From the NCBI GenBank assembly GCA_031291905.1, contig JARLIC010000137.1, positions 51,762 to 115,761 of the forward strand: DNA of 64,000 nt, written 5' to 3'. Position numbers and translations under genes: made by a program. Positions 2,009 through 55,180 of the stretch are shown here, piece by piece (the stretch's first letter is position 1; each line of letters begins with the position of its first letter). The notes under the pieces are model-generated. The model made no database searches and was not told the DNA's origin. It saw nothing but the letters and a program-made list of their open reading frames with translations. This DNA comes from Minisyncoccota bacterium (GTDB lineage: Bacteria; Patescibacteriota; Minisyncoccia; UBA6257; 2-01-FULL-56-20).

Positions 2009-3293
2009 AGATGAACGCCTCGGCGGCGCGAATATTGCCGACGTACCCGTTCTCGCTGTGCCAGGCGTCGGTGGCGCACAGGGACGGAATCCCCCGCACG
2101 CGGACGCCCGCGAACTCGTCACTCTTGAAGCCGTGAAAGTGCCCCGTCTTGAACTCACGCCACGTCGTCTCGGCCCAGTCCTGCTTCCGCTCCTGGGCCA
2201 TGATCAAGGGGAGCTTCTCGCGTTTGATCTTGTCGCCGTGCGTGTAGCCCAGCAGGTTGACGCCGTACCGGACGTACTTGCGGGATTTCAGGTCGCAGTC
2301 GACCTCCACCCGTGCGTCGTGGCGGAAATGGGCCGCGATCGTCCGTGCCAGGTGGTACGACGTGTGCCAGTCGTGGTTGCCGGGGACCAGGACGACCTTG
2401 ACCTTCGGGCAGCGGTCGGCGAACAGCTCGATCGCACCGACGTTACAGTCCATGCCGATTCCAACCATCTTGGGATACCGACCGTCCAGCTCCAGTTGCG
2501 TGCCGGCGGTGGTCGTGTTGCGGGTCGCATCGACGTGGAAGTGGTCGCTCCCGATCAGGAAGACGACCTCTTCGACGTCGTACTTGTCGAGACGACCCCA
2601 GAGTTCCTCCACCGCTTCACCGAAGACGCGTTCGGCGATCCGCAAGTCGTAGTTCTCGCCCGTCTCGGGCGCCCAGCACAGCTTCCCGAGGTGCAGGTCG
2701 GGGATGTTGATCTCGGCCAGGACGCCGCTGTTGGTTTTGCGTGGGGGCAGGGGAGGGCGGCTGAAGAAAGGAGCCTTCTCCGCCATCCGTGCGAAGAACG
2801 CTTCGGATGCGTCGGTCAACTGCTTGGGGATCAGCCGTTCCAGTTTCAACGAGACCCGCCAGAGGCCGTGGCGCTCGGCCTCGTCCGCACCGTTCCCCTT
2901 CATCTTCATGACGACTTCCCAGGCCGTGCATCCCCAGGTCTTGACGCGCCACGTCGCCAGGTCGACTTCGGCGTAGGCGACGGCGTCTTCCAGGGTGCGG
3001 ATGCGGCGGGGGCTGGCGAGTTCCAAACTCTGTTCGTCGCCGGTTTCCACGATCTTGGATCGCATCCCGTCCGCCGTCGGCTCGTCGATCGCGGCGTCGC
3101 GGTCCAGCTTGTGAAAATAGGCAAGAGCGGCGCTAGCCGAACAGTTGGCTTGCGAGCCGCCGACCCGGCACGAGCCGCCGGACTCGCGGACCTGACGAAG
3201 AATCCTCTTCTGATCGGGCGTCAACTTGGCCAAGGTGCAATTCCTTTTGGTGGGACCAAAAGCAAGGCGGATTGCAAGAAATAAGTATTGCAA
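1956..3293 (-). CDS. calcineurin-like metallophosphoesterase with ~200-aa N-terminal extension
   Basis: Metallophosphoesterase motifs are present in order: DLHLG, GSDHFH, VPGNHDW, GYTHGDK, GHFH. The start is more likely the TTG at ~3230 (MAKLTPDQKRIL, preceded by AAAGGAA). Confidence 0.75.
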   Translation of the reverse strand: MQYLFLAIRLAFGPTKRNCTLAKLTPDQKRILRQVRESGGSCRVGGSQANCSASAALAYFHKLDRDAAIDEPTADGMRSKIVETGDEQSLELASPRRIRTLEDAVAYAEVDLATWRVKTWGCTAWEVVMKMKGNGADEAERHGLWRVSLKLERLIPKQLTDASEAFFARMAEKAPFFSRPPLPPRKTNSGVLAEINIPDLHLGKLCWAPETGENYDLRIAERVFGEAVEELWGRLDKYDVEEVVFLIGSDHFHVDATRNTTTAGTQLELDGRYPKMVGIGMDCNVGAIELFADRCPKVKVVLVPGNHDWHTSYHLARTIAAHFRHDARVEVDCDLKSRKYVRYGVNLLGYTHGDKIKREKLPLIMAQERKQDWAETTWREFKTGHFHGFKSDEFAGVRVRGIPSLCATDAWHSENGYVGNIRAAEAFIYDKEAGFVANYNTIARN

Positions 3294-3308
3294 ATCGACG
3301 CCGACGAG

Positions 3309-3626
3309 TCAAGCGTCGTCCGCGTCGGGATCGTCGAAGACGTCGACGGGCTCCAGGTCGGATCGGAAGATCCGGGCCGCGCGTTCGCAGGCGGCGATCG
3401 TCATCTCCCACGACGCGTACTTCAGGCGCCCCCTGGTGTCGTGGGGAAGCTCGATCGGCATCTTGCCGCCGGCCGCGAGCTGGACGAACGGCAGGATCGC
3501 TTTCAGCCACAGCCGGTCGCTCGACTGGACCGCCAGGTATTCCGGGTCGACGTCGATGCACTCGTGGGAACAATCGAAACCATCGTCTTCGCCGTCGTCG
3601 ATCGGCGATTCGTCCAGTTCGTTCAT
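3309..3626 (-). CDS. hypothetical acidic protein
   Basis: ORF 3309..3674; internal Met MNELDESP starts at 3626. Confidence 0.4.
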   Translation of the reverse strand: MNELDESPIDDGEDDGFDCSHECIDVDPEYLAVQSSDRLWLKAILPFVQLAAGGKMPIELPHDTRGRLKYASWEMTIAACERAARIFRSDLEPVDVFDDPDADDA

Positions 3627-19019: not shown

Positions 19020-20669
19020 ATGGCTTGGGATTCAGCGTACTATTCGTCGGTCAACGAAGATCTCTTGCGATTCATCCCGCCGGATAGTAACCGCGTGCTT
19101 GAGGTGGGATGCGGAACCGGGGCGTTGGCCTCGCGGTTCAAGCGGATCAATCCGAAGTGCGTGTACTGGGGAGTGGAGGCTGACCAAGATGCGGGCGAAG
19201 CAGCTCACAATAATCCTGATCTCGATATCATGTTTTCAGAAACAATCGAGCACTTCCTAGGTCGATATCCCACGGAGTGCGAGAATCCCGATTGCGTCGT
19301 ATTCGGCGACTGCCTCGAACACCTTGTCGATCCACACGCCGTTCTCAAGAAATGCGTTGAATGGCTTAAGCCCAACGGCTCCGTCGTCGCCTGCGTTCCC
19401 AATGTTCAGCATTGGAGCGTGATTCAAACACTGATCCAGGGCCAATGGCCTCGAATGGGATCAGGATTGTTTGATGCGACGCATCTCAGTTGGTTCACCA
19501 AGCAAAGCCTGATTGAGATGTTCGAGGCGGCGGGGCTAACTATCGCGAAGATCGTCCCTCGCAATATCGCGCCAGGCGGCGAGCGTCTCATCGACGCCGT
19601 GAAGGAGTTTGGGCTTACCGAGGACGTCGGACGGTTTAGGGAGGGATGCCAGGCGTATCAATGGCTGATCCACGCCGTCAAGGGCGACGTCCCAAGCCGT
19701 AAAGTTCTCATCCGTGGCTTCACCGCCGAAGGATGCTGCGCCCGACCGCGTCTCACGGAGCCGGGCGGAATGATCAATACGATTCCCGGCTTCCGCTACT
19801 CCGAGGTCACGACACAGGTCGAGCCGGGGGAATCCGTGGTCGTTGTACGTCAGCGATTCAACATCACCGAAGCCGCCATCCGCGAACACCTGAAGCACGG
19901 GCAGTTGATTATCGGCGAATGGGACGACGACCCGTGGTACGAAGGGTTCAACGGCAAGCTCAAGACGCCATCCGTCGAATGGGCTCTCAAGGCTTGCCAC
20001 GCGATCCAGGTCAGCACCGAAGCCATCGCCGAACTCGTGCGACCGATCAACCCGAACGTCGCAGTGTTCCCGAATCAGATCGCAGCCGTGGGACCAGAAC
20101 GAGAGTACGTCGAGTCCGACGTAATCCGGGTCTATTTGGGAGGCCAGAGGAATAAAGGCGACTGGGACAAAGTGATCCCCTTCGTCAACGGCATGTCCGC
20201 CGCGAGCCCGGATGTTTTTCACTTCGTCGTCGTGCACGATAGGGATCTCTACCAGGCCCTTGAAACGCATAGGAAGACATTTTACGCCTTCCAGCCTTAC
20301 GAAAAGTATCGGGCCATACTGAGGACGTGCGATGTGACGATTGCTTCTCTAGCCAACACGCGGTTCAATCGGTGCAAGAGCGATATAACCGTAATCGAAT
20401 GCGCGGTGGAAGGCGTGGCCGTGATTCCGTGCAATCCAGAGTCCAGCATGTACACTGAGCTAAGGTCTTGGAAATACAACAAGAAACCAAGCGAGTTCGC
20501 TGAATCCCTTCGCAGCCAGGGACGAAGAGATCGCAGTTGGTCCATCAGCAACCGCATGCTCTGCGACCACTACAAGAAGCGAGCCGCATGGTACGACGGC
20601 TTGCTCGACGACAAGGCTGAATTGGATCGCCAGTTGTTCGAGCGGCTGCCGGAACTTCGTCCTACTTGA
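19020..20669 (+). CDS. class I SAM-dependent methyltransferase fused to GT-B-like glycosyltransferase domain
   Basis: MTase motif I VLEVGCGTGALA and post-I, II and III motifs are present. The C-terminal half has an ..ECAVEGVAVI.. GT-B-like region. GC is lower than in neighbours and the strand is opposite. Confidence 0.65.
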   Translation: MAWDSAYYSSVNEDLLRFIPPDSNRVLEVGCGTGALASRFKRINPKCVYWGVEADQDAGEAAHNNPDLDIMFSETIEHFLGRYPTECENPDCVVFGDCLEHLVDPHAVLKKCVEWLKPNGSVVACVPNVQHWSVIQTLIQGQWPRMGSGLFDATHLSWFTKQSLIEMFEAAGLTIAKIVPRNIAPGGERLIDAVKEFGLTEDVGRFREGCQAYQWLIHAVKGDVPSRKVLIRGFTAEGCCARPRLTEPGGMINTIPGFRYSEVTTQVEPGESVVVVRQRFNITEAAIREHLKHGQLIIGEWDDDPWYEGFNGKLKTPSVEWALKACHAIQVSTEAIAELVRPINPNVAVFPNQIAAVGPEREYVESDVIRVYLGGQRNKGDWDKVIPFVNGMSAASPDVFHFVVVHDRDLYQALETHRKTFYAFQPYEKYRAILRTCDVTIASLANTRFNRCKSDITVIECAVEGVAVIPCNPESSMYTELRSWKYNKKPSEFAESLRSQGRRDRSWSISNRMLCDHYKKRAAWYDGLLDDKAELDRQLFERLPELRPT

Positions 20670-28780: not shown

Positions 28781-29587
28781 TCAAGGAGCGACAATGAACT
28801 CTTCGCCGTCATCGCCAAGACGATACGTCAGGTGACAATGGCAATTTTGTCGGCACTGGCGATCGCCAATACTCCTGAGACTTCCGATCGGAACGAAGCC
28901 TCTCGCGGAGTCTTCCAGGCAGTCCCCGCAGTGTTCGGCTTCTCCAAGGACCAAGCGTTCCTGATCGAACACCATGTTCCTGGCGTACGTCGCTCGGGCG
29001 ATCTCTTGCGAGCAGCCCCAGGCGCAGGCACCGTAGGATTCGGCTCGGGCGATGAATTGATTAGCCGTGATCGGTGCGGGGAAGATGAAGACTTCCAGCG
29101 TCTTGTCCGGATTGAAGGGCTGGGGCCGAAGCATGTCGGCCTGGAAGCGATCGAGGTAGGCGTCTTGCGTTACGGCCTGGCGTTCGGCCTGCTGGAGTTC
29201 ATCACTGGTCAAGGCTCGCGGGCCGAGCAAGCCCATCGCACCGGCGACGATCGATTCGCGGACGAAGCCTTTTATCCGTTTGAAGAACCGGCCCGCTTGT
29301 TCACGTAGAGACCGCCCAACTTGCTCATCTTCGGCTGGGCCGAGAAGACTCCGGCCTTCGTTCCAGTCGAGCTGGCTCCTTGCGAACTGCTGGGCTTCAT
29401 GCTTAATCCACGCTTTGGAAAAAGCACGAATGGCTTCGAGAAGGCGAAGACGCTCATGCCCATCGAGTTGCCCCTTGTTGTAGCGTGCGGTCCAGCCGAG
29501 CTTTTTGAGGACGTGTGCGAGGATCGCTTCGGCCGAAGCCGGCTTGTTCGTCAGCCGCTTGCTTCCGAGGGAAGGTCCACGGACCAC
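28781..29587 (-). CDS. Mu F-like head morphogenesis protein
   Basis: Located directly after the portal gene. C-terminal H...CRQNCHCHL resembles the Mu F domain His/Cys motif. Confidence 0.55.
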   Translation of the reverse strand: MVRGPSLGSKRLTNKPASAEAILAHVLKKLGWTARYNKGQLDGHERLRLLEAIRAFSKAWIKHEAQQFARSQLDWNEGRSLLGPAEDEQVGRSLREQAGRFFKRIKGFVRESIVAGAMGLLGPRALTSDELQQAERQAVTQDAYLDRFQADMLRPQPFNPDKTLEVFIFPAPITANQFIARAESYGACAWGCSQEIARATYARNMVFDQERLVLGEAEHCGDCLEDSARGFVPIGSLRSIGDRQCRQNCHCHLTYRLGDDGEEFIVAP

Positions 29588-31209
29588 GGCAGGTGATCGA
29601 AAGGGTCGCGATCCTCACCCTCCGCTAATCCTTCGACTCCATGAAGCTCCGCATCCTCTTGATCGAGGCCGCCATAAGCACCGCGAAGGCCGTCAGTCCC
29701 GCCATGCTCAAGACTTCGATTGCGGCTTGCATTGGGCTTCTTCTTCTTGTCGTCGCCGCCCTTGGCTTTCGGCTTCTTCTTCACGTCCTTGTTGTTGACG
29801 GCCGGGTTCCCGCCGCCTTCGGCCATTCCGATCGCACCGGCGGTGGCCATCTTGATTGTAGCTTCATTCATCTTAACAATCATCGACAGCGGCGACATGG
29901 TGTTCGGAAGAATCGGCTCGTCCCCCCACGGCACCGGAGGGAGGCCGGTTTCGGCGTTCCTCTGGTTGATCGTGATGCTTCCGTTCCTCAGATCCATGTC
30001 GAATATCTTGGTTTCTTGCTCGCGATCGACCTTGAGCGGGTTGTCGAAAGCGAAGAACAGCCGCCGGTCCCATTGCTGGATCACCCGCGTCAACTTGCTT
30101 GCGATCGACATGCACCGGGGGCTGATCGCCTGCTCGGCGTGCATCTCCTTGGCGGCCTGGAGGTTCGCCAGGTTCGTGTCGGTGGAGAAGAACTCTATCG
30201 GCGTGCCCATCGCGGCGCACATCGCCTGCCAGTCGTACTCGGCGATCTTCAGGCCCGAGAGGTCGGTCGGCGCATAGGTCGTCGGCTGGAAGTTCCACAT
30301 CCCGGTCGTGACCAGGATGCCGCCCTGGCGAGAGCGGGCGTGCTTCATGTTCAGTTCTTGCTCGAACTTCAGCCGCTCGGCGTCGCCGGGCATCGCGTTC
30401 GCGTCGGCGGGCGATGCGATCAGGTTGGGACGAGGCCCTTGCGCCAGGAGTTGCTCCTGGACCGACACGAACTTGTCTTCGAGCTTGGCGTACTCGTAAG
30501 CGGCGTAGAGCGGCGGGTACGACGCTCCGTAAGGGTCTTTCAGGCTCACGCCGTGACCGAAGTAGACGATCTCGTCGGGCTCCAGTCGACTGGCGAAATA
30601 CTGGTAGTGCGACGGAATCGGGGTTCCGGCTGCGCGGACCGGGAGGACGTACTGGCTGAACAGCGGCCAGAATTCCGTGTACGGCCTGCCTTCCGGCCCC
30701 TTGGGGGCGAAGTAAGCACGGCCGATGATGTCGCTGTAGAGCGAGATCATTTTGAGGATGTAGACGAGATCGAACATCCCGTACGGATCGGGATTGTTGA
30801 GCGTGTGGAGAAACGGATGCTCGCGAATCTCTCGAATATTCGCGACGTTCGTTCCATTGCTGGGGACGTACCCCGCGTTCCGCATGTGGCAGAACTGCCG
30901 AAGCGAAACCTCTCGCGGGTCGGAGATGTCCTTCGGCTTCTTGCCGTTCGTCGAGTCCATGTACAACTTGAGCGGAACGGAACTGACGGCGTTCGCGTTG
31001 ATGACGGCACAACTGTAGGCGATCGACTTGAAGTGCTCGATCAACTCGACCGGCGAAGGGGCCGGCTTGGACCGCCACGCGTCCGTGGTCGACGGGCCGC
31101 CGATCCACCCGGTGCCGAGAGAGAATCCCCCAGGGGGTCCAGAGGAGCCTTTACGCTCGACACTGAACGCCGATGCGTCGGCCTGGAGTCTTTCGAGGAA
31201 GCTTGCCAA
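29551..31209 (-). CDS. portal protein
   Basis: 552 aa, located downstream of terminase. Acidic/basic C-terminal tail. Central HPFLHTLNNPDPYGMFDLVYILK segment. Confidence 0.7.
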   Translation of the reverse strand: MASFLERLQADASAFSVERKGSSGPPGGFSLGTGWIGGPSTTDAWRSKPAPSPVELIEHFKSIAYSCAVINANAVSSVPLKLYMDSTNGKKPKDISDPREVSLRQFCHMRNAGYVPSNGTNVANIREIREHPFLHTLNNPDPYGMFDLVYILKMISLYSDIIGRAYFAPKGPEGRPYTEFWPLFSQYVLPVRAAGTPIPSHYQYFASRLEPDEIVYFGHGVSLKDPYGASYPPLYAAYEYAKLEDKFVSVQEQLLAQGPRPNLIASPADANAMPGDAERLKFEQELNMKHARSRQGGILVTTGMWNFQPTTYAPTDLSGLKIAEYDWQAMCAAMGTPIEFFSTDTNLANLQAAKEMHAEQAISPRCMSIASKLTRVIQQWDRRLFFAFDNPLKVDREQETKIFDMDLRNGSITINQRNAETGLPPVPWGDEPILPNTMSPLSMIVKMNEATIKMATAGAIGMAEGGGNPAVNNKDVKKKPKAKGGDDKKKKPNASRNRSLEHGGTDGLRGAYGGLDQEDAELHGVEGLAEGEDRDPFDHLPWSVDLPSEASG

Positions 31210-31584: not shown

Positions 31585-31827
31585 TCAGGCAGGCCCAACA
31601 GGTCCGCCCAACGGCGGCGGCGGGTAGACGATCGGCGGGTTTGGCCCGGGGAAAGGTCCGGGGCTCGGCTCTGGTGCCGGAGTTGGTTCGCTCGGCGGAT
31701 TGCTCGGTGGCCGTGGAACGGTCGGGTCCGACACGATCACGGGCGGCATCACAACGCGTCCGGGGCTGATTCGCGGTTCAAGCGGCATTGCACCGCAGCA
31801 GCCGCACAGGCTGGGTATGAATCGCAT
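31585..31827 (-). CDS. Pro-rich small protein (uncertain)
   Basis: ORF could be a GC-rich artefact. N-terminus MRFIPSLCGCCG is followed by PxP repeats. Confidence 0.25.
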   Translation of the reverse strand: MRFIPSLCGCCGAMPLEPRISPGRVVMPPVIVSDPTVPRPPSNPPSEPTPAPEPSPGPFPGPNPPIVYPPPPLGGPVGPA

Positions 31828-31866
31828 ATGGTTGATCCGTGGGAGTGGATCGGAGGGAGAGATGAA

Positions 31867-31970
31867 GTGACGCGCCTTGGAATCGAACCAAGGTGGGCCA
31901 TCTACTGACGACCCCAGCCGCCAACAGCCCCGCTAAAAGGAGCGAAGCCTAACGTTGGTTGTCCGCGTCA
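31867..31970 (-). tRNA. non-canonical tRNA-like gene (~104 nt), candidate anticodon UUA
   Basis: On the minus strand TGACGCG...CCTTGGTTCGATTCCAAGGCGCGTCA-C shows a canonical T-arm (GGTTCGATTCC) and perfect 7-bp acceptor pairing (TGACGCG/CGCGTCA) 96 nt apart. Hairpin GCTCC-TTTTAGC-GGGGC gives a 7-nt loop with anticodon positions UUA. The D-arm and long variable region do not fold cleanly by hand. Confidence 0.4.
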
Positions 31971-32295
31971 ACTGATTCACGATTATCGTGATACAAGAAA
32001 GATCAGCATGGCGGTAATGTTGGTGACAAGGCATACCGCCCCGATCGAGATCCTGAACTTTCGTGCTTCGGTGATGCCATCTTGTTTAATGAAATTCAAG
32101 GCGAACAAGTTGATAACAAGCCACGCCAGCCACGCTCAAGCCAAGTGGATCGCCATCTAGTTCCTTTGTTCTACAATAAGGCTGTGAATCAGATTTCCTT
32201 AATACAGCAATTCCCGATTTTGAATAATAAGTTTCTAGGGACACCGTACGCTTTGGTCGATAGATCCACGGCGTATTCCTCTGCGCGAATTCCTT

Positions 32296-32559
32296 TCAGA
32301 TCTTCGGGCGAGTGCTCGATCGGCGTGAAGTGCCAAGCGGCGTCTCCCGCACGTCCATCAGCACCGACGTATCGGCCAGCCTGTCCCGGTTCCGACTCAT
32401 CGATTCGCCGTTCCAACGCCTATCCCCCTGGAAAATGCCGTAGCGACGCCTGACATCGACGACCTCGGCCATGCATCGCGGGCACACTTCGTCGTCAGCC
32501 GCGCAACCGCAGTCGCTGCAATAATCTTCACAGACATCGGCGTCGTCGTTGATCATCAA
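32296..32559 (-). CDS. small protein with N-terminal Cys cluster (CEDYCSDCGC....CPRC)
   Basis: ATGA-coupled to the upstream membrane-protein gene. Confidence 0.35.
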   Translation of the reverse strand: MMINDDADVCEDYCSDCGCAADDEVCPRCMAEVVDVRRRYGIFQGDRRWNGESMSRNRDRLADTSVLMDVRETPLGTSRRSSTRPKI

Positions 32560-32886: not shown

Positions 32887-33318
32887 TTAGGCGCCGACTT
32901 CGGTCCAGCGTTCGTCGTCCCAATCGCTCGTCATCGCCTCGTAGGTTCCGTCGTGCTGGGCCGGCGGCGGCGGCTGGATATTGTGCTTGGCCCCGTAGAT
33001 CGCCATCGCACGAACGACGAGCGGCGGCGGATTGCCGGTGGTCGCGGTCAGCGTGTCCCACCACTGGTGCGGGCCGTCTCCCTCGATCGCGACCTGGCGG
33101 CAGAAGTCGCACCGGAGGGCGGCCAGATCGTAGCGTCGCAGGAGTCGGGTTGATCGCTGTGTCGACCGGGTGCAGCGAGGGCAGGGGGGGCCGTCGTGCT
33201 TGATCACGACCTGGACTTCATCGTCCGGCACGTCGGCTTCGACGGCTTCAATAATGGCGTCTTCGGCATCGCGGGGCTTCGGGGGACGGCCGCGACGTTT
33301 GGTCTCGATCGTGCTCAT
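32887..33318 (-). CDS. basic zinc-ribbon protein (KRRGRPPKP; CPRC...CDFC)
   Basis: Overlaps the TerL stop by 4 nt. Confidence 0.45.
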   Translation of the reverse strand: MSTIETKRRGRPPKPRDAEDAIIEAVEADVPDDEVQVVIKHDGPPCPRCTRSTQRSTRLLRRYDLAALRCDFCRQVAIEGDGPHQWWDTLTATTGNPPPLVVRAMAIYGAKHNIQPPPPAQHDGTYEAMTSDWDDERWTEVGA

Positions 33319-35864
33319 GCTACCTCTATGTCCGTGTCATGCCACGAGTCGGGCCACCAGCGGGGGTCTTGCCAATCTTGCTGGGCGGCTCGATCTTTTT
33401 CGATCTTCTCCAGCCACGCCCGCTCCAGCCGTTCGCGTTCCATGCGTTCGCGTTCTTCGGGGGGGATGGCGGCTGGGCCACGCTTCTGGACTTCAAGAGA
33501 GGCGTAGGCGAGCACGTCGACTGTGTCGTCGTGGGCACCGTTAGGAAAGGTCATCAACTCGGTTTCGAGGTTGTCGAGTTCCGGGTGATGCTTGGGAAAC
33601 CAAATCTGACCGGCTTCCATGCGTATCTGGGCGTCTACGCTTCGGGCTATTTTATCGACGTTCCCGGTCTTGAGCGACTGGATCGTCAAGCCTTGCTTTC
33701 GAGCCGCTTTAATGACTAGGTTTTGCGCTGCAACATCTTCGATTCCACAATACGACGCCTTGTGCTTGTCCATCATCGCACGAATAGACGGGACGAGCTT
33801 ATCGCCGGTCATCTGTTCGCGATGCATGTCAAGAAGAATCAGGTCGCTGTCCGGCGTCACAGCCCACGCGCCGATGCATGTGTAGTCCGCACTGGTTCTT
33901 GTAGAAAATGCGAGGTCTACCGCCAGGAAAATTCGGCAGTGATCGAGGCTGAATGATCGTGTTTCAAGCCTGATGTAGTTTTCGTGCCGATCATAGTATT
34001 TGAAATCTGATCGCCGAAATAATCCACCACCCTCGGGGGAGGGGCGTTGCTGATACACAGAATTAAAAAGATGTTTTTGGGTTGCTTTGACACGAAGCAG
34101 GTATTCTTCGTTGAAGTGCTCGGGCCAGAGGGCTTCGCCTCGCTTGCGTCCCATCGGATCGTTATCTTCGGCCAAAGCCGGAAGATTATAGACGACCCAT
34201 TCCTCGCCCGTCTCTTTCGCTCGATCCAGGATCTTGCCGACCATGTCGGCTTCATGCCACCTCTGCATGACGACGACGATCGACCCACCGGGCTCAAGCC
34301 GCGTGTACGCGGTTCCGACGTACCAGTTCCAAGCCTTCTCGCGAAGCGTCTCGCTGAACGCATCCTCTTGCTTCTGGACGTCGTCAAGCACAAGTAGGTG
34401 CGCTCCCTTCCCGAGCAACGCGCCCCCCATGCCGACGGTCTGCATTCCGCCGCTGTGGCCCTTGAGCATCCAGCGATCGGCGGCCTTGCTATCCTGGCGG
34501 ATCTTGACTCCGAAGTATTTCTCGCCGTCCTCTTCGATCAGGTCGCGTACCTTGCGTCCCCACTCGGAAGCGAACTCAGCCTCATACGACGCCAGGATCA
34601 CTTTCTTGTCCGGGTTCCTCCCCAGATACCACGCCGGGAAGTACATCGACGTCATTGTGCTATTGCACGTCGGAATCATCGAGCGGCCACACAAAAACAT
34701 GTGGCTCGGTGAGTCGACTTCGATGCAAACAGTGTCGCCGGTTCCGACGTACGTGGCGCCGATGTATCGGTTCGGCTGCTTAACGCCGTCGCGACATCGC
34801 GGCGACTTCCGAGGCGACTTGCAGGCCCCTGCTTTATAGAACATGACGCGGAATTTGGGTCCGCAATCTTTTCCATAAAGCGTAGCTCTTCCAAGTATCA
34901 GGCTCGCCTTGGTTCCGAGTGAACGAACGAGTTCAAGGCAGCCTTCAGCCAATGCTAGGTCTGTCGAGCAAAACTCGACCTGGCCATCCGGAGCGACATG
35001 GCCATCCGTGTCGCAAAGCCCACGAAGCAACTCAAACCTTTGGCTCTCGCTCGCTCGCAGGTATTGGTTCGGGACATGCTTGTTCTTCAGCAGGCCGAGT
35101 TCGCGAAGCTTTCCGCCAAGGCCCATGACCCCAAATACGTTTTCGACCGACCGATCTCTCGTCTCGTAGCCGAGCCGCGAAAGTTCTTCCTTGAACCACT
35201 CAGTATCCAGGCCGTTGCACGTGATGCCGCAGTTCTCGGAGCAGCCGTTTCCAAGCCAAACACCGAGGACGTACGGGTCGATCGGCAAGTCGGCATCGGG
35301 AAGCTGAAGTGCCCCCTGCTTGCGGACCATAAGCCTCTTGTTTCGAGGCTTCGAGAGATAGGCGGTGTCTTTGACGTGGAATATATCGCGAGTCTTCGCC
35401 TTGCTGACGACCCACTCGTGATTTTGGTCGGCGAAGATTTCATCGCCGTCGTCGGTTGTTACTCGGTAGATCGGGCGGTTCTTCCAGACGGGAGACTTTG
35501 CCACAACGTTACAGGGCTGACCGTCTTCATTAAAGACCTGATCGCCCGGCTTCAGTTCCCCTATCGTCGTCCAGCCGGAAGGCGTCGGGATCGGGGTGCT
35601 CAGGGCTAAGGCTTTCCCGTGCCTCGGTGGCACCGTCACAATTAATCGTTTGATCCGGCCCTCCGCCACATCCATCATCTTCTGCGTCAAGAAGAGAAGA
35701 TGTTTCGCCGGCTTCCACTGAAATTCGCTCGAAAGATGTGCATAGTGCGCGGGGCTCAGGTTCGCTATATGCTTCTCTAGGCTGAATCGCTCCTGCGAGT
35801 TGAGTGAGGCCGCCAAGGAGCGTAAGGACTCGATCTGTTGCGGCGTCTCCATTGAGGTGATCAA
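33315..35864 (-). CDS. terminase large subunit interrupted by an intein
   Basis: N-terminal ATPase region runs through the Walker A up to VTVPPRHGK. It resumes as STMTSMYFPAWYLG.. after ~317 inserted residues. C-terminal RNase-H-like nuclease (FLAVDLAFS...DSDLILLD). Confidence 0.85.
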   Translation of the reverse strand: MITSMETPQQIESLRSLAASLNSQERFSLEKHIANLSPAHYAHLSSEFQWKPAKHLLFLTQKMMDVAEGRIKRLIVTVPPRHGKALALSTPIPTPSGWTTIGELKPGDQVFNEDGQPCNVVAKSPVWKNRPIYRVTTDDGDEIFADQNHEWVVSKAKTRDIFHVKDTAYLSKPRNKRLMVRKQGALQLPDADLPIDPYVLGVWLGNGCSENCGITCNGLDTEWFKEELSRLGYETRDRSVENVFGVMGLGGKLRELGLLKNKHVPNQYLRASESQRFELLRGLCDTDGHVAPDGQVEFCSTDLALAEGCLELVRSLGTKASLILGRATLYGKDCGPKFRVMFYKAGACKSPRKSPRCRDGVKQPNRYIGATYVGTGDTVCIEVDSPSHMFLCGRSMIPTCNSTMTSMYFPAWYLGRNPDKKVILASYEAEFASEWGRKVRDLIEEDGEKYFGVKIRQDSKAADRWMLKGHSGGMQTVGMGGALLGKGAHLLVLDDVQKQEDAFSETLREKAWNWYVGTAYTRLEPGGSIVVVMQRWHEADMVGKILDRAKETGEEWVVYNLPALAEDNDPMGRKRGEALWPEHFNEEYLLRVKATQKHLFNSVYQQRPSPEGGGLFRRSDFKYYDRHENYIRLETRSFSLDHCRIFLAVDLAFSTRTSADYTCIGAWAVTPDSDLILLDMHREQMTGDKLVPSIRAMMDKHKASYCGIEDVAAQNLVIKAARKQGLTIQSLKTGNVDKIARSVDAQIRMEAGQIWFPKHHPELDNLETELMTFPNGAHDDTVDVLAYASLEVQKRGPAAIPPEERERMERERLERAWLEKIEKDRAAQQDWQDPRWWPDSWHDTDIEVA
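34662..35612 (-). mobile_element. intein with LAGLIDADG homing endonuclease inserted in the terminase P-loop
   Basis: Hint N-blocks ALALSTPIPTPSGWTTIGELKPGDQVFNEDG and ..IFADQNHEWVV. Two LAGLIDADG motifs: YVLGVWLGNGCS and LLRGLCDTDGHV. C-terminal block ..VCIEVDSPSHMFLCGRSMIPTCN followed by S. Confidence 0.7.
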
Positions 35865-44970: not shown

Positions 44971-45255
44971 TCAGTCGTTGGCACTCTCGACGAGCGACAT
45001 TGACGCTTCGCCAGAAGACTCGTCTTCGGCTTGATCCTTGAATACGCCCTTCTTGCGTAAGTTGATAAGAGCGACGATGGCATCGTTCATTGTGCACGGA
45101 AAGTATTGGATCATATTGACCCAGAGAACTTCGTGCTCATAGGTACTGCCTATTTGGTCTGCCGACAAAGTGATTTCGCCTTCACTCTTTAAGCGCTTGT
45201 ACGTGGCCTCCAGAACTTCCTGGAAATCTTTTCTGTCACGGATTCTCACGATCAA
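44971..45255 (-). CDS. hypothetical protein
   Basis: ORF. Confidence 0.35.
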   Translation of the reverse strand: MIVRIRDRKDFQEVLEATYKRLKSEGEITLSADQIGSTYEHEVLWVNMIQYFPCTMNDAIVALINLRKKGVFKDQAEDESSGEASMSLVESAND

Positions 45256-46150
45256 CCTCCTCTAAGTAATCGATGCGCTGGCCGATCCACCGCATCATGG
45301 GAACTGGGAAAGAATTGCCGAGCACCGTCGTTCGCTGCTTGTCGCTCGCGGGGCGACCCTTATAAGTGACGCTCGTCCACTCATCCGGAAATCCCTGAAG
45401 CCTCTCCCACTCGATCGGCGTGAGCCGCCTTGTGATGCCGTCCCTGGCCACAAGCACTCCTTCGCCACCCTGACTTGCCCGAAGCGTCGGCGTCATTCCG
45501 ACGCAAGCTTTAGGGGTAGGGTCTCCGGTCCAACCGACGGGCTCCTTCCGAGTGCTTCCAGGAATTCGGGCGGCGCCGTCTTTCCGTATCGCGGAAACCT
45601 TGCCAGCATCTTGTCGATGGCCTCTGGCGTCAAAAAGTACCGCTGCGGCACGCTGCCATCGTCCTCCAGAATGTCCGACAACGAAGACGCGACGGCGTCG
45701 CTGGGGGACTCCGAAAGACTGGCAGTCCAGCACACGCCAGCACACGCCAAACCCGCACTCGGCCAGGATTTCAAGGAAGTTTCCGAAAGCCCTTCCGTTG
45801 TCGATGGACAGGATGCCAGGGACGTTTTCCCAGACGAACCATCGCGGGCGAAGAACCTCAAGAAGTCTTGCATAGTGCAGCGTGAGTCCGCCGCGATCGT
45901 CAGCCATGCCTTGTCGGCTTCCGACAATGGACCAACTTTGGCAAGGCGGTCCGCCAACGAGGACGTCGATCGGCCCATGTTCATCTCCGATGGTCGTCAT
46001 GTCGCCAAGGTTAGGAACGCTCGGATGCCGTTCAGCCAGCAACGCTGAAGCGAATGGGTCGATTTCAGAGAAAAAAGACGGCTTCCATCCCAGCGGTTCC
46101 CACGCCACCGTGGCGGCTTCTATCCCGCTGCACACACTGCCATAGATCAT
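45236..46150 (-). CDS. dcm: DNA (cytosine-5)-methyltransferase
   Basis: Motif I GSVCSGIEAA, motif IV GGPPCQSWS, ENV, QRRRRVFVVG and LGNSFPV are all present. Start MIYGSVC at 46150. Confidence 0.8.
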   Translation of the reverse strand: MIYGSVCSGIEAATVAWEPLGWKPSFFSEIDPFASALLAERHPSVPNLGDMTTIGDEHGPIDVLVGGPPCQSWSIVGSRQGMADDRGGLTLHYARLLEVLRPRWFVWENVPGILSIDNGRAFGNFLEILAECGFGVCWRVLDCQSFGVPQRRRRVFVVGHSGGRWQRAAAVLFDARGHRQDAGKVSAIRKDGAARIPGSTRKEPVGWTGDPTPKACVGMTPTLRASQGGEGVLVARDGITRRLTPIEWERLQGFPDEWTSVTYKGRPASDKQRTTVLGNSFPVPMMRWIGQRIDYLEEVDRENP

Positions 46151-46217
46151 CGTCGCTATCCCAATCCTGAATCGCCACGCAAGGTTCACGCGACTCGACG
46201 ATGTTGCTTTGCCATAA

Positions 46218-47329
46218 TTACTTATTGATCGGCATAACAACATACGTATAATTTTCGCCCGACCTGAACACCACCGCGTTCTTCGGGTCCAGCAAATCCA
46301 CCGTCAGGACCGTATCCATCTCCAGTGACCGCAACGCTTCGACGACGTACTGCGGGTCCATCGTCAGCGACATTCCATCCCCATCGAAGCCGCCCAGCAA
46401 AGGCAACTCGATGCACGATTGGCCGACGTCTGAGGCGTTGCTGGTCAACTCCACGCCATCGGACGAGAACTTGAACGTGACGCCCCGGCTTTCCTCGCTG
46501 GTCACGATCGAAGCCTGTTGCGTGGCCGACAAGAACGACGCCACGTCCAGCGGGATCGTGTACGTCGAGCTTTTGGGAAACACATCCTGATATCGCGGGA
46601 ACCGGCCTTCCACCAGCCGACTGTAGATCACGCTGTTCGACGACCGAACCACGACCGCAACGCCCTTAAGGAAGGCGACGTGAATCTGATCGCCGTCGCC
46701 GGACAGAGCCTTGTCGATCAGCTTCAGAGCTTTGACCGGAAGAACGCATTGCGAATCGTCCACGTCGCCGACCCGCTCAGCAGGAACCGTGGCTCGTGCC
46801 AGACGGCGGCCGTCGGTTCCGACGAACGAGACGCTGTCGTCCGCCCGTTCGACCAGGACGCCGCCGAGAGCGTATCGAGCCGAGTTCAGGTCGGTCGCAA
46901 AAGCCGTCCTCTTGATCAGCTTCTTCAAGTCCGAGTCGATCAGGACCATGTACGATTCGCTGTCAAACCCGGCTGGCTCGGGGAACAAACTTGGTTCTTC
47001 GTTCGGCAGGTTGAACCGTGACCGCTTGCCCCGGATCAGCAACTTGTCATCATCGGCTTCGATGCTGATCTCGTCGTCGATCGACGTCCGCAGGATTTGA
47101 CTGACGCGGTCGGTCGGCAGGATAACATGGCCGTCTCGATCGAACTTCACGCCAAGCAGCGTCCGCCGCACCCCGACTTCCAGATCCGTCGCGATCAATG
47201 TGCATTCGTCGTTGTCGATGACAAGTTTCACGTTTTGCAGGATCGGCTTGGGTGATCGAGCCGGCACGACGCTGGCGACCGTTGTAAACGCTTCGAGCAA
47301 GGCTTTTCGGTTGAACGTCGCTTTCAAGG
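46218..47329 (-). CDS. dnaN: DNA polymerase III beta subunit (sliding clamp)
   Basis: N-terminus KATFNRKALLEAFTTVASVVPARSPKPILQNVKL....LIATDLEV and C-terminal YTYVVMPINK are present. Likely TTG start at 47329 with GAGGTGG upstream. Confidence 0.8.
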
Positions 47330-47815
47330 TTCCACCTCGTGTGTCGGGCCATCTGATAGAAAGGTAGCCATCTGGTAATAGAACTTCTCTCGCCCCTCGA
47401 AGTCGTCTTCGACGGCGCATGCTTCGACCTTGCCGGCGTCCAAAAACATCGCCGCCGCACAGCCAGCCTGATCGATTTCGAGGTATACAGTGCGGTACTT
47501 ATGGGATTCGGTGTGTTTGAACATCATGCCGATTCCACCCTGGACGCAAGGTGACAGCCGCGTCAGGAATTGCATTCCTGGGTATTCAGCGAACAAGAAG
47601 TACTGAGCGACATCCAAAGCTTCCAGCGTCGGCGTCGGTGCGTCATATCCGTCCCACCCTGGCTTGAGCATCGTCAGCTTCACGAGCTTGGATTTCCAGT
47701 CGATCACGCTTCCCCTGACTCCCTCTGATCTCGATCCGCAAAAAACGTCTCGTAATCTGCTTTCGTCAACGACAGCAACTCGTCGTCCGGCATGCTGGCG
47801 AGGTAGGTGTTCCAC
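47324..47815 (-). CDS. hypothetical protein
   Basis: ORF. Confidence 0.35.
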   Translation of the reverse strand: MEHLPRQHAGRRVAVVDESRLRDVFCGSRSEGVRGSVIDWKSKLVKLTMLKPGWDGYDAPTPTLEALDVAQYFLFAEYPGMQFLTRLSPCVQGGIGMMFKHTESHKYRTVYLEIDQAGCAAAMFLDAGKVEACAVEDDFEGREKFYYQMATFLSDGPTHEVEP

Positions 47816-53316: not shown

Positions 53317-53570
53317 GCAAGGCAAAACCAGAAACCAGGAGTTCAGAACCAATCAAGGAGATCAAGAGCGAAATGCAAGTCCGTAGAGAAGTTTACGAAG
53401 CGGCGAAGCGAGACATCATCCAGGTCGTCGTCGAACTGGCCACGGAGCACGAGTTGTTCCCTATCGAGATCGTCGCGATCCTTGGCGAGATCGGTGCGAA
53501 GTTCTCGGTGGAAGAACTCAACCGCCAGTACGAAGAGTTCTACGAACCGGCCGACGCGGACGCGAGGTGA
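53313..53570 (+). CDS. hypothetical protein
   Basis: ORF. Confidence 0.35.
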   Translation: MSKAKPETRSSEPIKEIKSEMQVRREVYEAAKRDIIQVVVELATEHELFPIEIVAILGEIGAKFSVEELNRQYEEFYEPADADAR

Positions 53571-53595
53571 CAACGATGCAACCGCCCGCTCGACG

Positions 53596-54225
53596 ATGAG
53601 TGGGCGGCCTTTTATCAGGAGTGCCATATTGAGGTATGTGAGCATCGATATCGAGACGACGGGATTGAATCCGGAGACGGATCAGATCCTTGAGTTCGGA
53701 GCCGTGATCGACGACACGCTGAGGCCAGATGTTCCGGTTGAGGAACTGCCGACGTTCCGCAAGGTAATCCGGAGCGACCGGCTATCCGGGACGCCAATGG
53801 CAATCGCCATCAACGCGAGCCTGATCAACTTCATTGCTTCCGTGGAAAAGCCGGAAGAGAACGAATTGTTCTGCCTTCCTAAAGATCTTGGCTTCGAGTT
53901 CTTCGTTTGGCTTCGAGGTCATGGATTCAAGATCAAGAACAACTCGAATGCGGCCTTTGTGCCAGCAGGAAAGAACTACGCCGGATTCGATTCCAGGTTC
54001 CTAAATAAGATCCCCCACTGGAATACGTATCTGACTCCATGCCATCGCACGCTCGACCCCGCCATCCTCTACTTCGATCCCCTGAAGGACGAGAAGCCGC
54101 CGAGCCTTTACGAATGCCTGGAGCGGGCTGGGTTCGACGCTACGGTGAAGCACACGGCCGTCGACGACGCACGTGATGTGGTGCGACTTCTTAGGCATAA
54201 GTTTGCGGAGGTGTCTGGTGGCTGA
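53596..54225 (+). CDS. DEDD-family 3'-5' exonuclease
   Basis: Exo I motif YVSIDIETTGL and Exo III motif HTAVDDARDVVRLL. Confidence 0.7.
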   Translation: MSGRPFIRSAILRYVSIDIETTGLNPETDQILEFGAVIDDTLRPDVPVEELPTFRKVIRSDRLSGTPMAIAINASLINFIASVEKPEENELFCLPKDLGFEFFVWLRGHGFKIKNNSNAAFVPAGKNYAGFDSRFLNKIPHWNTYLTPCHRTLDPAILYFDPLKDEKPPSLYECLERAGFDATVKHTAVDDARDVVRLLRHKFAEVSGG

Positions 54226-55180
54226 GAACACGAAGATTCAGTGGGCCACGCACACCTGGAGCCCACATCGTGGATGTGCGAAAATCAGCCCTGGGTGTGC
54301 TAATTGCTACGCGGAACGCGGCAGTCATCGCAACCCAGGACTATTCGGCGTATGGGGAGTGAACGGCAACCGAGTCATCAACGCTGACTGGGACAAGCCG
54401 CTGGCGTGGGACCGCAAGGCCGCCAAGCTCGGCGAACGGCACCGCGTGTTCCCGTCGCTGTGCGACCCGTTCGAGGATCGCGAGGATCTGGACGGGTCGC
54501 GGTCGCGGCTTCTGGAGTTGATCAGCAAAACGCCGAACCTCGATTGGCTGCTACTGACGAAACGTCCCGAGAACTGGCGTCCGCTGATGCAAAGATTGGC
54601 GAACGCCGGAGTCAGCGACGGCGACTGCTTGGCGGGCGACTGGCTCGCCGGAAATCCGCCCGCCAACGTCTGGCTCGGCGTGTCGGTCGAGAATCAGGAA
54701 TACGCGGACAAGCGTCTGCCTATCTTGCTTCAGATCCCAGCCGCGATCCGCTGGGTGAGCTATGAACCCGCGTTGGGGCTAGTCGATTTTAAACCTCATA
54801 TCTGGGACATCGACTGGATCGTATGCGGTGGCGAGAGCGGGCCAAGGGCCAGGCCCTTCGACCTTCGCTGGGCCGAAGCCGCACGCGATCAATGCAAGGA
54901 AACCGACGTGTTGTTCTTCATGAAGCAGGCCGGTTCTCGGCCGATCATGAGCAGCGACGAGGCCAATCCCATCAAGCGGGCCGTCTGCGAGAAATACAAC
55001 GCCGGCTGGATCGAGCGGCACATCACCGATCCCAAAGGCGGTGCGATCGAGGAATGGCCAGAGGATCTGAGGGTCCGCGAGATCCCAGTTGTCGGAGCGA
55101 CGCCAGCCGAGATCAAGAAGGCCGAGGCGAAGGGGATGCCGCTGTTTGATTCTACAGAGAAGGAGACTGGCCTTGAGTGA
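54218..55180 (+). CDS. phage Gp37/Gp68-family protein
   Basis: TKIQWATHTWSPHRGCAKISPGCANCYAERG fits the N-terminal hallmark of this family. Probable GTG start at 54218 after GGAG. Confidence 0.6.
   Translation: MAENTKIQWATHTWSPHRGCAKISPGCANCYAERGSHRNPGLFGVWGVNGNRVINADWDKPLAWDRKAAKLGERHRVFPSLCDPFEDREDLDGSRSRLLELISKTPNLDWLLLTKRPENWRPLMQRLANAGVSDGDCLAGDWLAGNPPANVWLGVSVENQEYADKRLPILLQIPAAIRWVSYEPALGLVDFKPHIWDIDWIVCGGESGPRARPFDLRWAEAARDQCKETDVLFFMKQAGSRPIMSSDEANPIKRAVCEKYNAGWIERHITDPKGGAIEEWPEDLRVREIPVVGATPAEIKKAEAKGMPLFDSTEKETGLE

Follow-up and report, generated by a model that had tools for sequence, protein, structure and literature searches.

Small stable phage RNAs that have tRNA-like ends, are matured by tRNA-processing enzymes and do not decode are exemplified by the species 1 and 2 RNAs of T4 and the C4 RNA of P1 and P7. 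These are of coliphage origin and have other architectures, and the element described here can be likened to them by description only. Phage tRNA genes themselves are usually explained by codon usage or, lately, by the replacement of host tRNAs destroyed by defence nucleases. Allo-tRNAs and tRNA-Sec keep a D-arm. They also keep the anticodon loop and decode, with acceptor/T stacks of 8/4, 9/3 and 8/5 (Mukai et al. 2017, PMC5389517). Among non-decoding RNAs, the YrlA-type Y RNAs combine a tRNA-like T-arm with an acceptor-like stem, and some of them are encoded by phages; in M. smegmatis, RNase P cuts YrlA and CCA is added to it, and M1 RNA cuts a bacterial tRNA mimic whose acceptor stem has 7 bp (Chen et al. 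2014, PMC4201824), so that mimics of this kind can be handled as tRNAs. Here we describe a tRNA-shaped RNA element of 102 nucleotides (nt), termed type A, at 31868..31969 on the minus strand of a 64-kb stretch of contig JARLIC010000137.1; this whole stretch is referred to below as the window. We are highly confident that the element is a real, conserved, non-decoding tRNA-shaped RNA, while our confidence in any specific role is moderate to low. On balance we lean towards regarding it as a member of an undescribed family of structured RNAs of ~100 nt in one uncultivated tailed-phage lineage, which mimics the top half of tRNA and serves as punctuation and/or decoy.

The basic features of the element can be read directly from the sequence. 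On the minus strand TGACGCG (31970-31964) faces its complement CGCGTCA (31874-31868), which is followed by C at 31867 and preceded by the T-arm letters CCTTGG (31893-31888), TTCGATT (31887-31881) and CCAAGG (31880-31875). An earlier note on this DNA, made from the letters alone, had described a canonical T-arm running into CGCGTCA-C and pairing with TGACGCG, and this description over 31970-31867 is confirmed. Its estimate of the acceptor/T stack as 7 plus 5-6 bp holds as 7+6 bp in its own register, which additionally takes in U 31970 and C 31867; in the register of the homologues, where position 1 is G 31969, the stack is 6+6 bp. The closing stem and the T-arm are contiguous and make up 12 bp in total, which is the length of the tRNA acceptor/T minihelix, or 13 bp if the flanking U 31970-A 31868 pair forms. 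Folded alone (104-109 nt), the element has a minimum free energy (MFE) structure of -50.4 kcal/mol in the form of a four-way junction, composed of the closing acceptor-like stem, a long bulged hairpin, an 8-bp hairpin and the 6-bp T-arm. None of 200 dinucleotide shuffles matched this energy (z = -4.1).

From the 5' end (all features on the minus strand), the element starts with the 5' strand of the acceptor-like stem, GACGCG (31964..31969), which pairs with 31869-31874; the six pairs are 100% paired in the four sequences described below, and five of them show compensatory changes. Junction J1, GACAA (31959..31963), follows, in which C 31961 forms a lone pair with G 31918, a C-G pair invariant in all four members. 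Arm 2 (31921..31958) is the long bulged hairpin of the MFE structure: a 5-bp outer stem (31954-31958/31921-31925), the 5' bulge GUUA (31950-31953), a 9-bp inner stem (31941-31949/31926-31934) and the apical loop CCUUUU (31935-31940), with both stems covarying among the four members. An anti-Shine-Dalgarno-like CUCCUUU in this arm was dropped as a candidate feature, as it is not conserved in the homologues. Linker J2, CGGCUG (31915..31920), carries the GGCUG motif common to L002 and L007, which gives invariant GGCTGG columns in the alignment, and it may act as a D-loop-like partner of the T-loop. Arm 3 (31895..31914), an 8-bp hairpin with an AGUA tetraloop (31903-31906), is found in the MFE structure, supported by covariation in helix 4, and occupies the position of a class II variable arm. 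The T-arm (31875..31893) has the 6-bp stem CCUUGG/CCAAGG, 100% paired with five of six pairs compensatory, and the canonical 7-nt loop UUCGAUU (31881-31887). The last part is the 3' strand of the acceptor-like stem, CGCGUC, with the unpaired 'discriminator' A 31868 (31868..31874), both read from the sequence.

Arms 2 and 3 thus take the places of the D and anticodon arms, and a conserved 7-nt loop is found at the end of neither. A D stem was not found in the MFE, centroid or consensus fold, where a 5-nt junction stands in its place, and the earlier note was correct in failing to fold a convincing D-arm. CCA is not encoded after the closing stem, and the base at this site varies among the elements of the lineage (A, U, A, U, U, C); therefore no conserved aminoacylation identity is visible.

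Type-A members are present in the window and at three further loci, L002 (3146-3246), L007 (1353-1452) and L397 (1181-1282). Independent folds of the window, L002 and L007 elements gave the same MFE architecture from helices of different sequence. From 5' to 3' it comprises a 6-bp closing stem, a GAC junction with its C lone-paired to G, an outer stem, a 5'-side bulge of 4-5 nt (GUUA in the window, AAAA in L002, AAAAC in L007), an inner stem of 9-10 bp, the GGCUG linker, a hairpin of 7-8 bp, one nucleotide and the 6-bp T-arm. In the alignment of these three sequences 95% of the cells are paired and double-sided changes occur in 18 of the 34 pairs, against only 1-4 double-sided pairs when the 3' partners were slid as a control. 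Since this consensus structure was derived from the same sequences on which it was tested, a leave-one-out covariance model was added, built from L002 and L007 only and run without filters over the whole window. Its best match was the element itself at 31868-31969(-), in full length (model positions 1-101), with 57.6 bits and E = 2e-12, while the next-best match in the window reached 15.8 bits.

L397 is the fourth member (27.8 bits, E = 3e-6), with a z of -2.8 for its own fold. In the alignment of four sequences 93% of the cells pair and 21 of 34 pairs are compensatory, compared with 3-6 in slid registers. RNAalifold run on a plain MAFFT alignment returned the identical four-way junction; 23 of its 35 pairs are compensatory, and the covariation term is -9.1 kcal/mol. 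All five type-A helices are kept by compensatory change, and this holds across phages whose portal proteins are ~57-71% identical. The T-loop is the canonical UUCGAUY in all type-A members but L397, and also in the short forms described below. L397 has the T-loop UUGCAAA and, instead of GGCUG, the linker GUCGUCG; both motifs are thus altered together, and on sequence grounds this joint change would fit a tRNA-style elbow contact without proving it. Taken alone, the T-arm and the 3' strand resemble annotated phage tRNA genes (Lys, Tyr) with non-significant E-values. Two motif-spacing patterns, GGCTGG..GTTCGATNC and GGACRAC..GGCTGG..GTTCGA, were scanned over IMG/VR and GTDB, and no new type-A members were found among the matches listed after structural and covariance-model filtering. 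L204 was rejected as a member, being located inside an open reading frame (ORF) and having a different fold.

The genomic position is shared as well. The element is situated on the coding strand between the genes of the large terminase, 33315-35864(-), and the portal protein, 29551-31209(-) (PF04860), and the type-A RNAs of L002, L007 and L397 are in the same terminase-portal interval. No relatives of the window portal were found in INPHARED by DNA or protein, or in IMG/VR as a single query; a large protein database contained a portal family at 50-79% identity to it, and the genomic contexts of relatives were taken from this family and from IMG/VR or JGI loci. The terminase-portal interval proved to be a hypervariable run of small accessory genes in the lineage. 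These loci were searched with a structural detector, defined as a 5-bp T-arm with a TTCRANN loop, directly joined to a 7-nt strand whose pairing partner lies 25-140 nt upstream, which recovered the known tRNAs of a megaphage array as positive control. Elements negative in ARAGORN were detected upstream of the portal gene in L002/L003, L006, L007, L008, L009/L010/L021, L013, L148 and the window, and canonical tRNA-Met(CAT) genes are present at the same locus in L012, L018 and L148. No element was found at the locus in L014.

In 3.08 Mb of unrelated loci the detector had a background of ~16 ARAGORN-negative matches per Mb of strand, an estimate biased upward because these loci were chosen for containing GTTCGA. 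In 55.7 kb of coding strand upstream of the lineage portals 8 non-canonical elements and 3 tRNA-Met genes were found, where ~0.9 would be expected by chance; therefore the locus is a genuine tRNA and tRNA-like site in this lineage. A lone T-arm plus acceptor match is not beyond chance, and the significance of the window element rests on its fold, homologues and synteny.

The other elements at the locus differ in size. There are mini versions of 66 nt (L006), 73 nt (L008) and 60 nt (L390/L395), made of an acceptor stem, a GG-containing linker, one hairpin and a T-arm; other interiors are found in L009 (100 nt) and in L148 (114 nt, directly after tRNA-Met). A stack of ~12 bp recurs in them, split 7/5 in L395, L006 and L009, 6/6 in L008 and ~8/4 in a second element of L002, and together they show the tRNA top half as the common denominator of the locus. 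The type-A model gave ~23 bits for L006 and L008, 14.6 bits for L395 and no reported match for L009 and L148. The second element of L002, at ~3249-3356 (+) directly after the type-A RNA, is tRNA-shaped, with an 8-bp closing stem, a 4-bp T stem (UUCAAGU loop) and a 7-bp 5' hairpin, an allo-tRNA-like 8/4 stack. A further tRNA-shaped element of 113 nt occurs outside the portal lineage, in identical form, at two IMG/VR loci, L220 6925-7036 (-) and L265 7135-7246 (+). It has a 7-bp acceptor, a D-like arm, an 8-nt 'anticodon' loop, a very long variable arm and a canonical T-arm, and it was negative with ARAGORN, Rfam (E <= 1) and the type-A model.

The element is not recognised as a tRNA by the standard programs. 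ARAGORN in default mode found 0 tRNA and 0 tmRNA (transfer-messenger RNA) genes in the whole window, and its relaxed-threshold, intron, mitochondrial and tmRNA modes gave nothing usable on the element; at the 80% threshold only a different 'tRNA-???' with a 2-nt anticodon appeared, and nothing at default or 95%. Rfam had no match in the window at gathering thresholds, and its tRNA (RF00005), tRNA-Sec and tmRNA models, applied to 31600-32300 at E <= 10, did not match either. Even after brute-force deletion of every internal segment of 8-49 nt, each followed by a new ARAGORN run, the window element never became callable as tRNA. A 'tRNA-Gln' call obtained from L007 after forced deletion was judged an artefact, with a G.G mismatch and a degenerate D-arm.

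ARAGORN negativity alone proves nothing, because true tRNAs with an insertion in the anticodon arm, of the L074 type, are also missed by it; the Rfam tRNA model, which matches L074 at 34.3 bits, does not match the window element. Such tRNAs of 100-103 nt with an insertion of ~30 nt were seen in L074 4399-4501 (-), L088 8015-8116 (-), L121 10615-10716 (+) and L072 2264-2362 (-), and all four are missed in the default mode of ARAGORN. The earlier note had placed a UUA anticodon in the window element, which would read the stop codon UAA; these letters, 31934-31936, lie inside arm 2. At the equivalent apex the homologues have a loop of 4 nt in the consensus fold (AGAA in L002, AUAA in L007), therefore there is no conserved anticodon loop.

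Compared with a class II tRNA, the element shares the acceptor-like stem stacked in 12 bp on a T-arm with a UUCGAUU loop, the hairpin one nucleotide before the T-arm that resembles a long variable arm, and the location on the coding strand where relatives carry tRNA-Met. Unlike a class II tRNA, it has neither a D-arm nor a 7-nt anticodon loop, its stack is split 6/6 and not 7/5, its discriminator base is not conserved, and both ARAGORN and the Rfam tRNA model miss it. Thus a TPsiC-type loop and a contiguous acceptor/T stack are present, and a D-arm, a conserved anticodon arm and recognition by tRNA models are missing. The tRNA-like domain of tmRNA likewise consists of a top half (acceptor and T-arm) without an anticodon arm or D stem, with a long helix leaving the junction at the anticodon-arm position. 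However, the element is 102 nt long, compared with ~300-400 nt in tmRNA, has no tag reading frame and no pseudoknots, and carries C3-G70 instead of the G3-U70 alanine identity pair; it was matched neither by the tmRNA mode of ARAGORN nor by the Rfam tmRNA model.

The likeness to the YrlA-type RNAs consists in being non-decoding with a tRNA-like T-arm and an acceptor-like stem (PMC4201824). YrlA, in contrast, carries a Ro60-binding module, is encoded beside Ro60 and has its acceptor-like stem as an internal stem-loop, whereas the window element is not permuted, ends at its acceptor-like stem and has no D-arm. No Pfam match to the TROVE domain was found among the 28 window ORFs scanned, and no Rfam Y RNA model matched the element. 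With allo-tRNAs and tRNA-Sec the element has in common a split other than 7/5 at kept total length (PMC5389517), together with being over-long and missed by standard tRNA finders, and some of those RNAs are phage-borne; it differs in the 6/6 (or 7/6) split, the missing D stem and the missing anticodon loop. The sole match of the Rfam tRNA-Sec model was the short L006 element, at 22.8 bits against a gathering score of 47, and there was none in the window. Rfam 15 has no matching family for the type-A RNA, and in the literature searched no anticodon-less family of tRNA-shaped RNAs was described for a terminase-portal locus.

These comparisons favour the general alternative which the earlier note had held in reserve, an otherwise non-canonical tRNA-like RNA: the element is tRNA-shaped, with a canonical T-arm and an acceptor-like stem, at a locus that bears tRNA-Met in sister phages. 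The UUA reading is rejected, and the fallback can be stated more closely as a new RNA family with covariation support. A phage tRNA gene at the same locus is its most likely origin. We propose that the RNA would be transcribed on the coding strand within the terminase-to-portal operon and would fold into an L like that of tRNA, in which the GGCUG linker docks on the T-loop as a D-loop surrogate. It might then be recognised and excised by host enzymes acting on the top half of tRNA, such as RNase P, RNase Z or other 3' nucleases, the CCA-adding enzyme and TruB/TrmA; since YrlA is handled by RNase P and CCA addition (PMC4201824), such handling is plausible for the element too. Excision would cut the polycistronic transcript just upstream of a proline-rich gene and the portal genes, as in tRNA punctuation, and would also release a stable tRNA-like small RNA. 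Because there is no anticodon and no conserved discriminator base, the released RNA would more likely be a mimic, decoy or sponge for a tRNA-binding factor than a translational RNA.

Several points weigh against this proposal. A stack split 6/6 is atypical, and the type-A set is small, with four sequences found, all of them metagenomic. One of these, L397, has a non-canonical T-loop and no GGCUG, so the family may be able to do without tRNA mimicry. The type-A model matches the other variants, including the shorter ones (L006, L008, L009, L148b, L395), weakly (15-24 bits) or not at all, and their homology to type A is at most putative. No minus-strand promoter or terminator was detected near the element. 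The putative RNase P/Z cleavage and CCA addition are deduced from the 12-bp stack and the T-loop, and the decoy role likewise from shape.

In this lineage a tRNA-shaped RNA is kept under clear structural selection although it is unable to read codons. At one hotspot it alternates with shorter top-half forms and with a true tRNA-Met, which suggests that the shape of tRNA is itself put to use, with transcript processing, mimicry and decoy as the candidates. Should it be only a processing signal, it would be a modest addition to the known tRNA-like punctuation. The fact that a small, covariation-supported RNA is missed by ARAGORN and Rfam means that similar RNAs are probably under-counted in viral metagenomes.

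Possible, though clearly less probable than a top-half mimic, is a purely cis-acting mRNA element, that is, a processing or stability signal, a 5'-UTR (untranslated region) regulator of the proline-rich gene or a put-like antitermination RNA, with no free functional RNA. This overlaps the punctuation half of our proposal and is not exclusive of it. It agrees with the coding-strand location in a dense array of same-strand genes with no promoter or terminator of its own detected, and with the distance of ~25-85 nt from the end of the element to the start of the proline-rich gene in the window, L007, L008 and L009. The same spot upstream of this gene is occupied in L147 (4081-4177) and L013 (5274-5710) by other strongly structured non-coding RNA (z about -4.2). 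On the other hand, the element and the proline-rich gene are separated by other genes in L002 and L006, L148 with its element lacks the gene altogether, and a generic regulatory hairpin needs neither a canonical T-loop nor a 12-bp stack. The structured stretch of L013 includes a degenerate T-loop-like hairpin.

The RNA could also be an effector of counter-defence or host takeover, a top-half decoy that soaks up a host factor recognising the acceptor/T-arm or the elbow, with its size variants and tRNA-Met swapped in an arms race; as a complete account we consider this rather unlikely. Its targets would be an acceptor-end-modifying toxin or a tRNA nuclease, and in some phages it would be partnered by an adjacent basic protein. 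The window does encode the Rnl-type RNA ligase that the earlier note had pointed out, since ORF 49458-50741 matches PF09414 (RNA_ligase) and the OB-fold domain PF21189. This ligase and the counter-defence genes in the interval of the relatives fit a tRNA-centred conflict with the host, as context and not as evidence.

The cargo of the interval in the relatives includes Acb2/Tad1-hairpin proteins (L006 5196-5513, L007 2475-2792), BubE and a HAD hydrolase (L002 3391-4620), TnpB (L009 3007-4020), HNH genes (L012, L147), and RyR with a D12 methyltransferase (L008 360-1680).

More doubtful still is the idea that the element forms a ribonucleoprotein with a small basic protein, for example through an arginine-rich motif binding one of the tetraloop hairpins. 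A very basic, Arg/Lys-rich protein of ~50 amino acids (aa), with the motif ..EQADG.GYGMRSR..KR.K.R.ERR.AK.NPEC.. and no Pfam or PHROG match, is encoded just ahead of the type-A RNA, at a distance of 5-6 nt, in three of the four carriers (L002 2981-3139, L007 1188-1346, L397 1023-1175). The window, however, has the RNA and no homologue of this protein anywhere in its 64 kb, and in L014 (~3054-3206) and L015 the ~180 nt behind the gene of this protein contain neither an element nor a significant fold. A 52-aa ORF upstream of the window element (32086-32244) was considered and found to be unrelated to the basic protein of L002 and L007.

A functionless remnant, either a decaying tRNA pseudogene or a chance T-arm-like hairpin, is very improbable. 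It would find room in a hypervariable region where sister phages have a real tRNA-Met, and a single T-arm/acceptor match is not rare by chance; but since the helices are kept by covariation across phages as divergent as those above, decay is not credible, and the leave-one-out match and the fold energy speak against chance.

The suppressor proposed in the earlier note, that is, an RNA which would be charged, present UUA in a GCUCC/UUUUAGC/GGGGC arm and read UAA, now has next to no probability. The hairpin can indeed be drawn, with U33 and a purine at 37, and the canonical T-arm on an acceptor-like stem, with a stack of 12-13 bp, recalls tRNA-Sec. Forcing it nevertheless costs +6.2 kcal/mol relative to the MFE structure, and its closing pair has an ensemble probability of ~1e-4; the negative tRNA searches, the 4-nt apices of the homologues, the missing D-arm and the variable discriminator base were given above. 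The stop codons of 69 non-overlapping long ORFs in the window are TGA in 49, TAA in 13 and TAG in 7, and TAA ends capsid-region genes and the sliding clamp gene. TAA is an ordinary stop in the window, so there is no sign of UAA reassignment or recoding.

Equally hard to credit is an attachment or recombination site, in which a copy of the 3' part of a host tRNA would serve as attP or as a hotspot of cassette exchange: the exact 22-nt match of the T-arm/acceptor 3' half in an unrelated megaphage and the flanking motifs common to cassette boundaries would suit it, but covariation extends to the complementary 5' strand and to two internal helices, for which an att core has no need, an integrase was not seen among the annotated neighbours, and the terminase-portal location is atypical.

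The megaphage sequence is L001 (IMGVR_UViG_3300021400_000025, 418 kb), where an uncalled tRNA-shaped element of 78 nt lies at 2851-2929 (-) between tRNA-Asp and tRNA-Gln in an array of 29 tRNAs and a tmRNA. Besides the shared 22 nt it has the same 6-bp T stem as the window element; its apical loop is of 8 nt, and it escapes ARAGORN except at 80% thresholds, where it is given a 4-nt anticodon.

Downstream of the element a spacer of 40 nt (31828..31867, minus strand) leads to the next gene and contains the hairpin GAUCC-N8-GGAUC directly ahead of the AUG. This motif at the gene start (CCCUCCGAUCC, 8-nt loop, GGAUC, AUG) precedes the proline-rich gene in the window and the HAD gene in L002 (3357-3390, after the second element); its position before different genes suggests cassette exchange at common intergenic sequences. 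The proline-rich gene (31585..31827, minus strand, 80 aa) lies downstream and does not belong to the RNA; at least 8 lineage members have it, at 65-74% identity and with the conserved C-terminus DPPIVYPPPPLGGPVGPA, and further loci carrying it were found by a back-translated DNA pattern. We take its N-terminal LEPRxxPS to resemble the LExRxLLS of secreted proteins of Planctomycetota, which may hint at the host.

Upstream of the element, and likewise not part of the RNA, there is a spacer of low GC content (45%) at 31970..32295 (minus strand), delimited by the GC profile. The low-GC pocket mentioned in the earlier note is real (0.46-0.50 over ~31900-32300 vs 0.58-0.70 around it); the element itself, with 61% GC, is placed at its edge. 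No convincing ORF, no significant fold (z = -0.1), no Rfam match and no similarity in relatives were found for the spacer. Three sigma-70-like promoter matches were seen in it on the plus (non-coding) strand, where 0.4 would be expected.

The large terminase gene of the window is split by a LAGLIDADG-type intein, as is the terminase of L149, and the terminase of several relatives is called as two genes, one for the N and one for the C domain, in some cases with an HNH gene in between. The contig, of 119 kb, was deposited as part of a metagenome-assembled genome of Candidatus Pacebacteria; the window is a tailed-phage genome of 60% GC with terminase, portal, capsid and tail genes, and on account of this gene content and GC the contig was probably misbinned. 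Other genes recognised in the window encode a SAM methyltransferase (19020-20669), a C5 cytosine methyltransferase (45236-46243), the DNA polymerase III beta clamp (46218-47420), an RNase T-like exonuclease (53482-54225) and a DUF5131 protein (54173-55180).

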